A model generated the notes under the pieces. It was not told where the DNA came from. It did not search any database and worked only from the letters and a program-made list of their open reading frames with translations. From the IMG/VR virus record IMGVR_UViG_2690316175_000007: DNA of 5,623 nucleotides. One strand, 5' to 3'. Every line of letters begins with the position of its first letter. Position 1 is the stretch's first letter. The stretch is from a virus. Taxonomy: Duplodnaviria; Heunggongvirae; Uroviricota; Caudoviricetes. The translations under genes and the position numbers were made by a program. This document shows positions 1-5,623 of the stretch, in pieces.

Positions 1-2
1 CC

Positions 3-335
3 ATTCTATTTCAGGAAGGAGTGTCCGTTAAACTCAGGCTACCTCAATTTGCGCTGGGAAGTGGTGCGCAAGTTGCGTCTAGTGGCGATATTTATGGTTC
101 AGTGTGGGAAAACAACTGGTTAAGCACATGGCTGCATAATCATGTCGTTCGGGATATTCGTCTTGGCAGCATTGAATATAAAAACGTATGGCGCGACTAC
201 GGCTTTGGCGATGCGTCAGGTTATGTTTTAACAGCCGCAATTAACAGCAATGCGGATGATATTGTCGACACTGTTGCCAGAAGGCCAATTCAGAAATTGA
301 TTGGGGGAATATGGTACAACGTGGGGAGTGTTTAA
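3..335 (+). CDS. stf: Side tail fibre protein, C-terminal variable domain (5'-partial, expressed orientation of the invertible segment)
   Basis: The frame is open from the window edge (the track's GTG at 21 is not the true start) and stops at TAA 333-335, 1 nt before the tfa start. The C-terminus ([17 protein letters not shown]) is homologous to the end of the - strand cassette ([17 protein letters not shown]). Position immediately upstream of tfa matches stf-tfa operon organisation. Confidence 0.7.
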
Positions 336-336
336 G

Positions 337-864
337 ATGATGCACCTGAAAAATATTAAGGCCGGGAATCCGAAAACACCGGAACAATACCAGCTAACTA
401 AAAAAGCGGGCGTGGTATGGCTCTTTTGCGAAGATGGCAAAAACTGGTATGAGGAACAAAAGAATTTTCAGCCAGACACCATAAAAATTGCTTACGATGA
501 GAACAACATCATCGTTGCTGTCAGTAAAGACGTTTCAACTATTAATCCTGAAGGGCTAAGCATAGTTGAAGTTCCTGATATTACGGCAAATCGTCACGCA
601 GACAATAACGGAAAATGGATGTTTCTGGATGGTAAAGTAGTAAAGAGGGAATATACAGAACAGGAACTGCAACAACAGGCCGAATCACAAAAGGCCGCAT
701 TGCTTTCCGAAGCTGAATCAGTCATCCAGCCGCTGGAACGAGCTGTCAGGCTGAATATGGCAACAGACGAGGAACGCACACGACTGGAAGCATGGGAACG
801 CTACAGTGTTCTGGTCAGCCGTGTGGATACGGCAAATCCTGAATGGCCACAAAAGCCTGAATAA
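337..864 (+). CDS. tfa: Tail fibre assembly protein (Tfa)
   Basis: ATG at 337 (second ATG at 340) preceded by a GGGGAG Shine-Dalgarno. The N-terminus [22 protein letters not shown] and the C-terminus ...[27 protein letters not shown] are typical of the Tfa family (as in Mu U, lambda Tfa). Stop TAA 862-864. Confidence 0.85.
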
Positions 865-870
865 AAATTA

Positions 871-888
871 AGGCCCGATAGCGGGCCT
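871..888. terminator. Bidirectional intrinsic terminator between the convergent tfa genes
   Basis: GC-rich hairpin AGGCCCG-atag-CGGGCCT lying between the + tfa stop (862-864) and the - tfa stop (893-895). It is flanked by an A-run on the left (a U-run for - strand transcripts) and a T-rich stretch on the right. Confidence 0.6.
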
Positions 889-892
889 TCTC

Positions 893-1426
893 TCATTCTG
901 GTTGTTCGGGAAACGTTACTGGCAGGCTGGAGGTGTCTGTGGATTCAACCTTCTGCGCATAGAGCATCCACTCGGTTAATTTTTGTTTATTCTCATCGGA
1001 AATGATGCCCAGCTGTAGCTGAGAGTCCCACAGCTGGGTTTTATCCCTGACGAGCTGCAGCAGGCTCTGCTTTTCATTTTCCGCTTGTTGCCTTTGCTCT
1101 TCCTCGGTATAAGTTCGCTTTATCACCGCACCATCTTTGAACATCCAGTTGCCCGAAATATCAGCCCGGCGATTTGCTGTAATATCAGGCAACTCAACGA
1201 CACTTAAACCTTCTGGATTAATTGCTGATACATCCTTGTCTATAGCAATAATTATTCCCTCAACTGTGTAAGCCAGTTTTATTGTATCCTCCTGAAAGTT
1301 TTTTAATTCCTCATGCCAATTTTTTCCATCTTCGGACCATAACCAGATAACATCAAAATTCTTTGTTAGCTGGTATTGTTCAACGGTTTTTGGATTACCT
1401 GCGACAATGTTTTTTAAATGCTGCAT
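893..1426 (-). CDS. tfa: Tail fibre assembly protein, alternate copy (Tfa') of the invertible segment
   Basis: 177 aa starting [22 protein letters not shown]. The N-terminal two thirds resemble the + strand Tfa and the C-terminal third diverges. It starts 2 nt after the stop of the upstream - strand tail-fibre cassette. Confidence 0.85.
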
Positions 1427-1428
1427 GA

Positions 1429-1578
1429 TTATACCTGCGATACGTTATACCATGTTCCGTTAATTAACTTTTGTATTGGTCTGAATACTGCCGGATCATC
1501 ACCATCGACTTCACCGATAATACCAAGCCCCGTGATTACATGGCCTGATTTTTCATACATCACGCCTTTCTTCATGGT
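1429..1578 (-). pseudogene. Post-amber C-terminal remnant of the stf' cassette
   Basis: The same frame continues after the TAG for 49 codons ([49 protein letters not shown]) and ends at TAA 1429-1431. This tail is conserved with the C-terminus of the + strand stf copy, so the TAG is a recent nonsense change rather than the native stop. Confidence 0.6.
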
Positions 1579-2355
1579 CTAAACAACTCGTGTGCCAAGT
1601 CTGACATCTCTCACATAGCGGGAATCAAAGTTACCGTAATCCGAGGGATTAACACGTCCCGTAATATTTATGGTTTTATTACTTTGAATGCTTCCGGAGA
1701 CAAAGCGCATAACATGGACGTTATTAGCATAAACATCCAGATTACCATCGCCTTTTTGTTTAAAGCCCGTGTCATTATCACCCAATACAATCGAATTACC
1801 GCCAAGAGCACTGGATGTTCCGATACCCAGTGCACCATTCAGTTGACCACCAGATAACGGCAGTGCACCAACATCTCCTGCTGAAGGTTTTCTGGTGGTG
1901 TAAAATTCGGACCAGTCGGCTTCAAAACCATAACCATCACGGGCTGAACGATAAAAAATACCGCCATTTTTATAATTAATCCGAAACTGAGCTGCAGGAC
2001 AACTTCCTTCTCCCATATAAAAATGAATAATTAACGTTGATGCACCACTAATAGTTGCGTTATAGGCTCCGCTACTCCAGTTCCATCCAACTGCTTTATC
2101 ATTCGCAACGGTGCTTCCTGTTTTCCCTAAGGCAAACGCACCAACATGACTTGCTTTTAATGTGATATCGGAGGAACCATCAAAAGCCACATTGCTTATT
2201 TTCCTGGCAGTTTTTAATTTTGCAGCTGTAGAAGCATTGCCGGATAGTTCACCAGAAAGGCCACCGCTGAATGTTTGTCGATTAGTCCAGGTATTCGCTG
2301 TACTGAGTAACGGTATTTTCTCCCCGCTTGTGCCGAGTTCTCGTAAACCGAGGTT
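1579..2355 (-). CDS. stf: Alternate side tail fibre variable cassette (stf'), silent orientation, with no start of its own; interrupted by an in-frame TAG at 1579-1581
   Basis: On the - strand the frame is open from 2355 (just inside the crossover site) down to the TAG at 1579-1581. The translation (...GEKIPLLSTANTWTNRQTFSGGLSGELSGNASTAAKLKTARKISN...VRDVRLGTRVV*) is glycine/serine-rich and tail-fibre-like. The track ORF 1579..2190 is the Met-delimited part of the same frame. Confidence 0.7.
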   Translation of the reverse strand, partial: NLGLRELGTSGEKIPLLSTANTWTNRQTFSGGLSGELSGNASTAAKLKTARKISNVAFDGSSDITLKASHVGAFALGKTGSTVANDKAVGWNWSSGAYNATISGASTLIIHFYMGEGSCPAAQFRINYKNGGIFYRSARDGYGFEADWSEFYTTRKPSAGDVGALPLSGGQLNGALGIGTSSALGGNSIVLGDNDTGFKQKGDGNLDVYANNVHVMRFVSGSIQSNKTINITGRVNPSDYGNFDSRYVRDVRLGTRVV

Positions 2356-2363
2356 TTAGATAA
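2338..2363. other. 26-bp site-specific recombination (crossover) site of the Gin/Pin/Hin invertase family; right boundary of the invertible segment
   Basis: TTCTCGTAAACC-GA-GGTTTTAGATAA: two imperfect inverted 12-bp half-sites around a 2-bp core. About 23 of 26 positions match the Mu gix site as I recall it. It lies inside the stf' reading frame and 55 bp upstream of pin, as in Mu G, P1 C and e14 P segments. Confidence 0.7.
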
Positions 2364-2417
2364 TGGCGGTTTCTGGCCTGCATGGCATGATTTGTGCTTT
2401 TGGACGGGAGATTCAGC

Positions 2418-2744
2418 GTGCTGATTGGCTATGTAAGGGTATCAACAAATGACCAGAATACAGACCTGCAACGAAACGCTCTTGTTTGTGCAGGATATGA
2501 ACAAATATTTGAAGATAAATTAAGCGGAACAAGGACAGGCCGACCTGGATTAAAACGTGCTTTAAAGCGCCTTCAAAAAGGTGACGCACTGGTTGTCTGA
2601 AAACTGGACTGACTGGGGCACTGTATGCGGCATCTTGTCGTGCTGGTGGTGGAAGCCTAGAAAAAGTATCGGGTGTTGCTGAACCGTGTTGATACATCAA
2701 CTGCACCTGATATTGAGTGGCCTGCAAATCCTGTCAGGGAGTAA
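2418..2744 (+). pseudogene. pin: DNA invertase Pin/Gin-family serine recombinase, inactivated: in-frame TGA at 2598-2600 and 2610-2612, then in-frame fusion to a tfa 3' fragment carrying a TAG at 2658-2660
   Basis: GTG start at 2418 with a GGGAG Shine-Dalgarno. MLIGYVRVSTNDQNTDLQRNALVCAGYEQIFEDKLSGTRTGRPGLKRALKRLQKGDALVV* is the serine-recombinase catalytic N-terminus (active-site Ser in YVRVSTNDQ). The stops fall where Pin, as I recall it, has Trp61 and Arg65. After ...LVVLVVE the frame reads [29 protein letters not shown], which is a Tfa C-terminus. The C-terminal helix-turn-helix domain is absent. Confidence 0.8.
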
Positions 2745-2792
2745 TCATTGGGATTATGCCGCAGCACGTCTTAAGCAAGAACGTGCTGCGGT
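2651..2792 (+). repeat. tfa 3'-end remnant copy A plus downstream hairpin; direct repeat of copy C
   Basis: Positions 2664-2764 are identical to 3944-4044 (101 bp). The flanks differ by a few substitutions (for example TAG here versus TGG in copy C) and a 1-nt indel in the hairpin. Confidence 0.85.
2759..2791 (+). terminator. Hairpin after tfa remnant A (putative intrinsic terminator)
   Basis: 11-bp stem CCGCAGCACGT / ACGTGCTGCGG with an 11-nt loop. A T-run (2802-2807) follows about 10 nt later, which is not ideally placed. It lies between the remnant stop and the convergent methyltransferase stop. Confidence 0.4.
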
Positions 2793-2798
2793 TGGATG

Positions 2799-3467
2799 CT
2801 ATTTTTTCCCTGAAGCGGAAAACATTACTACAGTACCTTGAACCTTGGTTTTAACATTCTCGAAATGCTCTGAGAGTATATGTGTTAAGCCTTCTTCGGA
2901 ATCTTTTGTGTTTGAAAAGATGCCTTTCTGATTGTAAATGCGCATCAGTTTTTGACCGAAGCTATTGTGCACAACTCCATCGCCAAGAATTGTGGCTCCG
3001 TATAGAGTTCCATCGTCAGTTAAGGCCTGCGCCGCATTGCGTATTACACAGCTTTTTGTAGATATATTTCCAGGCAGGCAGTGAAGAAGGTAAAACATGG
3101 AAATGGAATCAAATTGACCATGTAACGCCGCGGGATAAGGTTCAAAAACATCATGGCTAATTTTATGTTTAATTTTTGATTCCCCAGCCCTTGTAGATGC
3201 CGCGTTCAGGCTAGCTTCGTTCAAATCCATTAAAGATATCAGACTACTCTCAGGTACGTGAGTAAGGTAAAACCCAGTTCCAACACCAATATCCAGATGG
3301 TTGTTACCTAAATGTTCCAGAAAGTGTGGAAGAAGGTGTTCCTTTGTAGGACATCCCCATGCAAGCCGATTTGATACTCCCAAAACCCACCAGTCATAAA
3401 GCTTTAGGGTAAGTGGTGTGTAAATTTTAGCCCCATCATCTGTGTTTGTTTTCATTGATTTCACCAT
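2799..3467 (-). CDS. Class I SAM-dependent methyltransferase (small-molecule type, UbiE-like fold); probable phage moron
   Basis: 222-aa ORF; a second ATG at 3455 has a better Shine-Dalgarno (GGTGA). Motif I is HLDIGVGTG, with an acidic post-I residue (LMDLNE), motif II around FDSISMFYLLHCLPG, and motif III LTDDGTLYG. The N-terminal YDWWVLGVSNRLAW resembles the UbiE-type YD...S.....W pattern. There is no DPPY/NPPF or PCQ DNA-methyltransferase motif. It may be a homologue of the e14 ymfD product (similar length, same annotated function), but I cannot confirm this from memory. Confidence 0.8.
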   Translation of the reverse strand: MVKSMKTNTDDGAKIYTPLTLKLYDWWVLGVSNRLAWGCPTKEHLLPHFLEHLGNNHLDIGVGTGFYLTHVPESSLISLMDLNEASLNAASTRAGESKIKHKISHDVFEPYPAALHGQFDSISMFYLLHCLPGNISTKSCVIRNAAQALTDDGTLYGATILGDGVVHNSFGQKLMRIYNQKGIFSNTKDSEEGLTHILSEHFENVKTKVQGTVVMFSASGKK

Positions 3468-3486
3468 GTTATAGTTTTATTTGTGA

Positions 3487-3515
3487 ATTAAATCAATTAT
3501 GGCGATGAATTACAA
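3487..3515 (-). promoter_or_regulatory. Putative sigma70 promoter for the methyltransferase
   Basis: On the - strand: -35 TTGTAA (3510-3515), 17-bp spacer, -10 TTTAAT (3487-3492), about 20-30 nt upstream of the start codon. Confidence 0.3.
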
Positions 3516-3559
3516 GGGGTTAAATGCTGCCGCAGCATAGCGATATTGAAATAGCCTAG

Positions 3560-3791
3560 TATGCTTCGATACAGCAGGAGCCGAATGGCTGGAAGACCGT
3601 CACCACACAGTTCTACATCCAGGAATTTAGTGAGTATATTGCGCCACTGCAGGATGCTGTAGATCTGGAAATCGCAACGGAGGAAGAAAGATCGTTGCTG
3701 GAGGCATGGAATAAATATCGGGTATTGTTGAATCGTGTTGATACATCAACTGCACCTGATATTGAGTGGCCGGAAGAACCAGACACAATGT
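3560..3791 (+). pseudogene. tfa 3' fragment B (C-terminal ~77 codons of a tail fibre assembly gene, no start codon)
   Basis: The frame opens after TAG 3557-3559 and reads ...[68 protein letters not shown]. This aligns with the C-terminus of the intact Tfa (...[46 protein letters not shown]). A 38-bp core is identical to copies A and C. Confidence 0.6.
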
Positions 3792-3865
3792 AAGGCAGTA
3801 TGACTTTCCGTGAGACAGATGCTGGCCAACGTGGGATATTTAACGCGGGTTAACATCGTTGTCAG

Positions 3866-3926
3866 NNNNNNNNNNNNNNNNNNNNNNNNNNNNNNNNNNN
3901 NNNNNNNNNNNNNNNNNNNNNNNNNN
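3866..3926. other. Assembly gap (61 N)
   Basis: Run of N characters. The track ORF 3862..4194 (-) with X residues is an artefact of this gap. Confidence 0.95.
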
Positions 3927-3928
3927 TG

Positions 3929-4024
3929 CTGGAAGCCTGGAAGAAGTATCGGGTGTTGCTGAACCGTGTTGATACATCAACTGCACCTGATATTGAGTGG
4001 CCTGCAAATCCTGTCAGGGAGTAA
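3929..4024 (+). pseudogene. tfa 3' fragment C (starts at the gap); direct repeat of copy A
   Basis: Reads [32 protein letters not shown] with TAA at 4022-4024. Positions 3944-4044 are identical to 2664-2764. Unlike copy A, the Trp codon is intact here (TGG). Confidence 0.6.
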
Positions 4025-4038
4025 TCATTGGGATTATG

Positions 4039-4072
4039 CCGCAGACACGTCGTATGCAGGAACGTGCTGCGG
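4039..4072 (+). terminator. Hairpin after tfa remnant C (putative intrinsic terminator, bulged stem)
   Basis: CCGCAGaCACGT ... ACGTGCTGCGG, followed by the T-rich TTAGTTTGTGAGCTTTCG. Confidence 0.35.
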
Positions 4073-4138
4073 TTAGTTTGTGAGCTTTCGATAGTGGTTG
4101 TTATTTTTGCCCTTATTTGTTCCGGAGGCCATGGTTCA

Positions 4139-5275: not shown

Positions 5276-5284
5276 NNNNNNNNN
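5276..5284. other. Assembly gap (9 N)
   Basis: Run of N characters. Confidence 0.95.
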
Positions 5285-5463: not shown

Positions 5464-5579
5464 ATGTCAGTGTGGTACATGGATATCGATACCATCGCCA
5501 ATTATAAACTGGGCGGTGCACAGCAACATGATAGCGTACGCCTCGATCCGTGGGTGTTTATGTTCTCAGCAGGATATCG
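5464..5579 (+). CDS. Hypothetical ORF, 5' part only; reading frame runs into the IS1 end (probably disrupted by the insertion)
   Basis: ATG at 5464 directly follows an in-frame TAA. It reads MSVWYMDIDTIANYKLGGAQQHDSVRLDPWVFMFSAGYR and continues into IS1 sequence. The - strand here is closed by stops. An AT-rich promoter-like region lies upstream. No family was recognised. Confidence 0.25.
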
Positions 5580-5623
5580 GGTAATGACTCCAACTTATTG
5601 ATAGTGTTTTATGTTCAGATAAT
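5580..5623 (-). mobile_element. IS1 insertion sequence, terminal 44 bp (right inverted-repeat end; element continues beyond the window, transposase genes on the - strand)
   Basis: GGTAATGACTCCAACTTATTGATAGTGTTTTATGTTCAGATAAT matches the reverse complement of the IS1 right end (…ATTATCTGAACATAAAACACTATCAATAAGTTGGAGTCATTACC) as I recall it. Confidence 0.9.

Follow-up and report, generated by a model that had tools for sequence, protein, structure and literature searches.

Does an invertible tail-fibre segment remain switchable when the invertase gene next to it has been destroyed? This question is raised by a stretch of DNA of 5,623 nucleotides (the window; IMG/VR virus record IMGVR_UViG_2690316175_000007, Caudoviricetes), in which a lambdoid prophage comes to its right-hand end. 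The first-pass annotation, made from the letters of the DNA alone, described the frame at 2418-2744 as a pin invertase gene that is disrupted by two nonsense codons, has lost its DNA-binding domain and is fused to the 3' end of a tfa gene. It regarded the switch as probably locked, with the caveat that an invertase supplied in trans might still invert the segment. The analysis described below confirms the loss of the invertase gene and favors the caveat over the main conclusion.

Organization of the locus

The window exhibits the layout of the G/C/P-type switches, with two opposed cassettes, each composed of a C-terminal part of stf and its own tfa. The features to which we refer in the text are as follows:

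21-335, + strand: 3' end of the stf variable part, in the expressed orientation; the ORF runs on upstream of the window (ORF list), and in L010, the closest relative found, it closes an intact stf ORF of 918 aa
340-864, + strand: tfa, paired with the expressed stf tip (Pfam Caudo_TAP, PF02413, E=7.8e-37)
893-1426, - strand: tfa', the alternative gene of the silent cassette (Pfam Caudo_TAP, E=4.8e-34)
1429-2337, - strand: stf', the alternative variable part in the silent orientation, broken by an in-frame TAG at 1579-1581 (translation; Pfam gp37_C)
2338-2363, + strand: 26-bp invertase crossover site TTCTCGTAAACCGAGGTTTTAGATAA, the right end of the invertible segment (matches gix; identical to EC958 Phi4_3prime)
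2406-2410, + strand: GGGAG ribosome-binding site, 7 nt ahead of a GTG start (read from the sequence; aligns with the annotated ribosome-binding site and GTG start of Mu gin)
2418-2597, + strand: codons 1-60 of pin', the intact N-terminal part of the serine-recombinase catalytic domain, with YVRVSTNDQ (translation, Pfam, tblastn, alignment with Mu Gin)
2440-2454 and 2488-2502, no strand assigned: candidate recombinational enhancer, two Fis-consensus 15-mers, TATCAACAAATGACC and GTGCAGGATATGAAC (consensus and position)
2598-2649, + strand: decayed codons 61-78 of pin', e14-pinE-like, with TGA for Trp61, TGA for Arg65, R68H and S69C (alignment)
2650-2744, + strand: last 31 codons of tfa (stop included), joined in frame to pin', with TAG at 2658-2660 inside (repeats; PGAP annotation of orthologues)
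2758-2793, no strand assigned: GC-rich hairpin past the tfa stop, with a second copy at 4039-4074 (repeat comparison; fold of 2745-2815, MFE -28.6 kcal/mol)
2799-3467, - strand: class I SAM-dependent methyltransferase (Pfam, annotation of orthologues)

With the Fis-dependent switches Mu G/Gin, P1 C/Cin, e14 P/Pin and Salmonella H/Hin the window shares the convergent stf/tfa cassettes, the 26-bp site matching gix, an invertase gene that starts about 55 bp outside this site, Fis-type sites at the enhancer position, and 97% nucleotide identity to Mu gin over codons 1-60. In contrast to these switches, the invertase of the window is truncated and carries nonsense codons, and the system is therefore unable to act on itself. 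The host element differs too: it is a lambdoid prophage, whose tail genes are of the lambda type in L010, rather than Mu, P1 or e14. The TAG in the silent stf', on the minus strand, falls 48 codons before the end of stf', where NCTC86 has CAG, and the ORFs of L010 are split likewise; thus, a flip in the lineage of the window would yield a truncated fibre.

The crossover site occurs once in the window, with zero copies expected by chance. The left site would lie upstream of the window; in relatives it is present and intact, at 9083-9108 in L010 (where the 918-aa stf ORF is also intact), at 958-983 in EC958 (L002) and at 1075-1100 in L001. The Hin enhancer is 65 bp long, has a Fis site at each end and lies about 100 bp from hix (PMC3798978). 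At the level of sequence, the two candidate Fis sites of the window, whose starts are 48 bp apart and which lie about 90 bp from the center of the crossover site, agree with this geometry. Mu gin, P88 inv, e14 pinE and Phi4 of EC958 all have such sites at identical positions; site II is one base off Mu, and that base is common to ST131. The enhancer position falls within the first 85 nt of the invertase gene, as expected by the first-pass annotation, and the conserved Fis-like 15-mers suggest that the region 2440-2502 may act as an enhancer.

The invertase remnant and its fusion to tfa

The frame 2418-2744 on the plus strand is translated into a product that starts VLIGYVRVSTNDQ. Over codons 1-60 (2418-2597), 57 of the 60 residues are identical to Mu Gin, the differences being C27Y, D41G and T57A, and 175 of the 180 nucleotides agree with Mu gin. 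With Trp and Arg put back in place of the two TGA codons, codons 1-80 match the Pfam family Resolvase (PF00239, E=9e-22, profile positions 2-86 of 145), while tblastn searches of the window with Gin, PinE and two P2-type invertases return E-values from 3e-36 to 5e-42, the latter for Gin. The serine nucleophile motif of serine invertases (YxRVSTxxQ) is retained as YVRVSTNDQ. Hence, the catalytic N-terminus is indeed intact for 60 codons. The first-pass annotation had also considered what would undo its reading, namely that the product of 2418-2600 might not be a serine recombinase; according to the alignment, it is one of the Gin/Pin type.

The remnant does not comprise a complete catalytic domain: the arginines of LDRLGR and helix E are not in the open frame, and the homology stops at codon 78. 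The predicted loss of the helix-turn-helix (HTH) domain is likewise supported, as tblastn with four intact invertases detected no sequence coding for the invertase C-terminus or HTH in the entire window. In these searches the similarity nominally reaches residue 99 via "DTST", a string common to Pin and Tfa; we judged this likeness past the junction to be coincidental, because bona fide tfa 3' ends match the stretch in question at 97% identity. The remnant is unable to yield an active invertase, since it retains neither the catalytic region of Arg65 nor helix E nor the HTH domain. In summary, 2418-2744 is a serine-invertase pseudogene that contains nonsense codons, lacks the HTH and is fused to a tfa 3' end.

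At the DNA level, Mu gin, the P88-type invertase and e14 pinE of K-12 have TGG (Trp61) where the remnant has TGA at 2598-2600, and CGC or CGG (Arg65) where it has TGA at 2610-2612, which agrees with the placement of both stops at Trp and Arg positions in the earlier reading. A third in-frame stop had been overlooked: TAG at 2658-2660 takes the place of a tfa Trp codon, which is TGG in the third tfa copy of the window (3939-3941) and also in L007 and L008. The pin' part is itself mosaic, with 2330-2608 about 95% identical to genes of the Gin/P88 type and 2609-2649 e14-pinE-like (44/52, versus 31/52 for Mu). From about 2650 onwards the stretch exhibits C-terminal Tfa homology, as a 3' fragment of the Caudo_TAP family (PF02413), and 2647-2764 is 97% identical to the tfa 3' end of the window at 3927-4044 and related to that at 3696-3813. 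The fusion product consists of GTGCTGGTGG followed by TGGAAGCC, with the switch from pin' to tfa at about 2649/2650. Thus, the fusion of some 78 invertase codons to the last 31 codons of tfa, as originally proposed, holds, but the suggestion that the two genes were joined at a TGCTGG microhomology does not: the join is blunt, with TGG doubled, and there is no crossover within the shared hexamer. In the orthologues from NCTC86 and ST131, PGAP annotates the same region as "recombinase family protein, incomplete, missing C-terminus", followed by "tail fiber assembly protein, missing N-terminus". A promoter and terminator scan of 2200-3600 returned nothing above the expectation from shuffled sequences.

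All three stops and the junction of the window recur in NCTC86 and EC958. The region 2300-2800 is present over at least 80% of its length in 426 of the 5426 complete E. coli genomes, and the junction stretch 2520-2656 in 536 of the 5426. Among 185,579 species-representative genomes the junction was encountered in one 2.5-kb contig only, which is probably a contaminant, and the three-stop allele was not found in the contig scan of these genomes. This contig (JAEWTL010000008.1, L009 1-306, labeled "MAG: Bacillota bacterium") carries a junction with one stop that is 96.7% identical to the window, and it most likely reflects enterobacterial contamination of the bin.

Alleles with the TGA at codon 65 as the sole stop, in which Trp61 and the tfa Trp codon are still TGG, are found in CREC-532, in CFSAN064036 and in the metagenomic contig mentioned above. 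The Rac allele of CFSAN064036 and that of CREC-532 share the junction VVLVVEAWKKY and the codon-65 TGA with the window, but differ from it in having kept both Trp codons and in residing at other chromosomal sites. The junction therefore occurs in prophages at different chromosomal sites and is older than two of the three stops. In CFSAN064036 the allele is located in the Rac prophage between trkG and ompN (L008 3399-4404) and is annotated as the 64-aa protein WP_001378636.1; unlike in the window, an intact convergent pinR follows about 100 nt downstream. An intact ancestor of the mosaic pin was not found: the full-length matches listed for 2520-2656 among the complete E. coli genomes are all annotated as pin'/tfa fragments. 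This distribution is consistent with a scenario in which an illegitimate join placed the last 31 codons of tfa directly behind codon 78 of the invertase and codon 65 became TGA, whereas the mutations of Trp61 to TGA and of the tfa Trp codon to TAG would have occurred later, in the lineage that comprises the window, NCTC86 and ST131.

Orientation of the segment and the source of the invertase

The closest known system is Phi4 of the ST131 strain EC958. It occupies the same chromosomal locus as the window (the ompW/trpA end of the prophage), and it has the same pin'::tfa junction with the same three stops, an identical right crossover site, and the same downstream methyltransferase and Rha/ash genes, at 98.6-98.9% nucleotide identity. 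The window differs from Phi4 in belonging to another strain lineage, in its plus-strand tfa cassette, which is only about 74% identical, and in possessing an additional nonsense codon in stf', an additional 231-nt tfa-remnant unit with a run of N, and an IS1 end at the ompW remnant.

Phi4 was described by Forde et al. (2014, PLoS One 9:e104400, PMC4134206) as having a truncated DNA invertase (EC958_1582) and an invertible segment of 3106 bp, and a single preparation of EC958 DNA gave PacBio reads from which they assembled both orientations. The same authors proposed that the invertase of the prophage Phi1 acts on Phi4 in trans, and cited as established (their refs 49-51) that Gin, Cin, Pin and Hin cross-complement. 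We constructed a synthetic flipped junction of EC958 by exchange at the center of the 26-bp sites, with the dead pin included, and counted the complete E. coli genomes that contain either junction. The native EC958 junction is present in 284 genomes, including EC958, 4/1-1 and 4/4, and the flipped one, over at least 80% of its length, in 143, including JJ1886, JJ1887 and 4/0, with 100.0% identity over 1049 nt among the 40 matches listed. The sum of 427 is about the number of genomes that possess the locus. JJ1886 differs from EC958 by a clean inversion of 3119 nt between the 26-bp sites, with flanks of 978 nt and 3927 nt that are 100% identical. The inverted repeat of EC958 is only 32 nt long and contains mismatches, and homologous recombination of the RecA type is therefore implausible there. 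The Phi1 (P2-like) invertase (WP_000905061.1) is intact, has 199 aa and is 100% identical in ST131 genomes of both orientations; it is the proposed helper at the EC958 locus. Its gene is present over at least 80% of its length in 641 of the 5426 complete E. coli genomes. As regards the products, JJ1886 (L015 1-1995) has a long stf CDS that PGAP considers intact (WP_023363168.1), whereas in the EC958 orientation (L002 1-587) stf is incomplete, so in ST131 just one orientation gives a PGAP-intact long tail-fibre CDS.

The inference that the switch is probably locked is thus not upheld, as a locus with the same three stops flips. Because both orientations occur at an ST131 locus that carries the dead invertase, inversion in trans, which the first-pass annotation had mentioned as a caveat, is better supported than a locked switch.

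In the lineage of the window itself, the picture is less direct. None of the complete E. coli genomes contains window positions 1-2700 in one piece. In the six closest complete genomes, which are NCTC86-like, the segment 312-2367 is opposite to that of the window relative to pin', and loci of the NCTC86 type have inverted repeats of 781 nt with 99% identity that flank the segment. Five near-identical assemblies (L010-L014, 99.8%) are all in the orientation of the window. The L010 assembly (GCA_000268005.1, AKND01000032.1) carries at 12004-12396 a perfect inverted copy, 393 nt long, of the constant part of stf at 8711-9103, and the end of the contig is joined via the hybrid crossover site TTCTCGTAAACCGAGGTATTCGATAA. 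Reads of the flipped form in that culture could produce such a tail, yet we rejected it as a proof of flipping: its 407 nt are also found, at 100% identity, in the Phi1-type stf junction (L006 5562-5968), and a join into a Phi1-like prophage would account for it just as well. Positions 47-2367 of the window match L010 at 99.83%, and positions 1-46 have no match there, so that the variable part of stf contains a mosaic breakpoint.

We consider it very probable that the window contains an old, vertically inherited Gin/Pin remnant that is unable to make an invertase, but whose cis-acting parts have been kept, such that the segment can be inverted by a foreign enzyme. The remnant sits at the right end of an invertible segment, stf/tfa versus stf'/tfa', of a lambdoid prophage at ompW near trp, and retains the 26-bp crossover site together with the candidate enhancer position inside the gene start. 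With these parts kept, the segment would be invertible whenever a compatible invertase is present, and would invert if another co-resident prophage supplied one. By analogy to ST131, inversion may also occur in the host of the window, where it would depend on a helper invertase and a complete pair of crossover sites.

Among the alternatives, the one with the strongest claim is that the switch is locked in this particular genome, where a functional invertase in cis would be missing and, in addition, either a compatible helper would be missing or the left site would be damaged. The dead invertase, the uniform orientation of L010-L014, the decay of the silent cassette by the TAG at 1579-1581 and the presence of the Phi1-type invertase gene in only the minority of complete genomes given above all point in this direction. 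On the other hand, the crossover site and the candidate enhancer region are intact, the orthologous ST131 locus flips despite the same three stops, the window is oriented opposite to its six closest complete relatives, and E. coli harbors other invertases of the Pin family, such as e14 pinE in K-12 and pinR in CFSAN064036. Pin-family invertase genes are common across E. coli prophages. On balance, we regard a locked switch as possible but rather unlikely. Orientation differences could also result from RecA-dependent recombination between long inverted repeats rather than from the action of a serine invertase in trans. The 781-nt repeats lie in exactly those genomes relative to which the window is inverted, so for this pair of orientations the RecA route is conceivable. 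At the ST131 locus, however, the repeat is short and mismatched, and the flipped junction corresponds to an exact exchange at the center of the 26-bp site, with hybrid half-sites and 100.0% identity, which makes RecA improbable as the general explanation.

The remaining alternatives concern the remnant rather than the segment. That the stops and the fusion are errors of assembly or consensus, which hide a full-length invertase, might be suspected from the unfinished state of the window, in which runs of N occupy 3866-3926 and 5276-5284. This route is excluded for practical purposes, because the stops are conserved across independent assemblies; the identical stops and junction recur in several drafts and in hundreds of genomes that were finished independently of each other, PGAP calls the orthologues pseudogenes, and the window contains no 3' half of an invertase. 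It is also hard to believe that the peptide of 60 residues (64 in the one-stop alleles), or a read-through fusion with Tfa, has a function of its own, e.g. as a modulator of invertases. The ribosome-binding site and the GTG start have been kept, some genome annotations list the 64-aa ORF as a protein (e.g. WP_001378636.1) and the fusion is in frame; but an in-frame fusion has a one-in-three chance, the peptide is devoid of Arg65/Arg68, of helix E with its dimer and tetramer interface and of the DNA-binding domain, and the stops have accumulated, one and then three, as predicted by neutral decay.

Both the pseudogene and inversion in trans at such a locus have already been annotated and published, and the window is a further instance; its significance beyond annotation is little. 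Nonetheless, it illustrates that a dead invertase beside an invertible segment does not amount to a frozen switch. Cis-acting sites suffice if an invertase comes from elsewhere, so phase-variable loci, those for tail fibres among them, can depend on which other prophages are resident. Such loci give rise to alternative contigs and contig breaks in assemblies, and the stub of 60 to 64 codons should be annotated as a pseudogene and not as a recombinase. It is tempting to speculate that the 5' stub has been kept for the sake of its Fis enhancer, and that the crossover site and the stub together form an "orphan switch" module, insufficient on its own, that spreads among lambdoid prophages, although we give this idea little credence. 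If it were true, the orphan switch (at the ompW locus, in Rac and elsewhere) would rely on co-resident invertases of the P2, Mu or e14 type, and whether one prophage switches its tail fibres would hinge on another being present.

Genes and repeats downstream of the remnant

The methyltransferase gene at 2799-3467 is followed, in order along the window, by more tfa 3' remnants, the Rha and ash genes and a 3' remnant of ompW. It is flanked by direct repeats of about 148 nt (2647-2793 and 3927-4074, about 92% identical), each of which consists of a tfa 3' end and the GC-rich hairpin. This arrangement looks like a moron-type insertion or like layered prophage remnants. Compared to EC958 and L011, the window contains an extra unit of 231 nt (3772-4002), which holds a variant of the tfa 3' end (ending in EWPEEPDTM and a stop), a sequence of no known kind and 61 N. 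The unit may be either ancestral, with the other genomes having suffered a deletion between two 76-nt tfa repeats, or an artefact of a scaffold gap. The orthologous loci of NCTC86 and ST131 adjoin trpA, or yciE/F/G and trpA. In the window, the ompW 3' remnant (5464-5623) marks the attR side of the prophage; close to its final codons it is interrupted by the terminal sequence of an IS1 (5580-5623), which is 100% identical to the end that adjoins the IS1 transposase CDS in L008.
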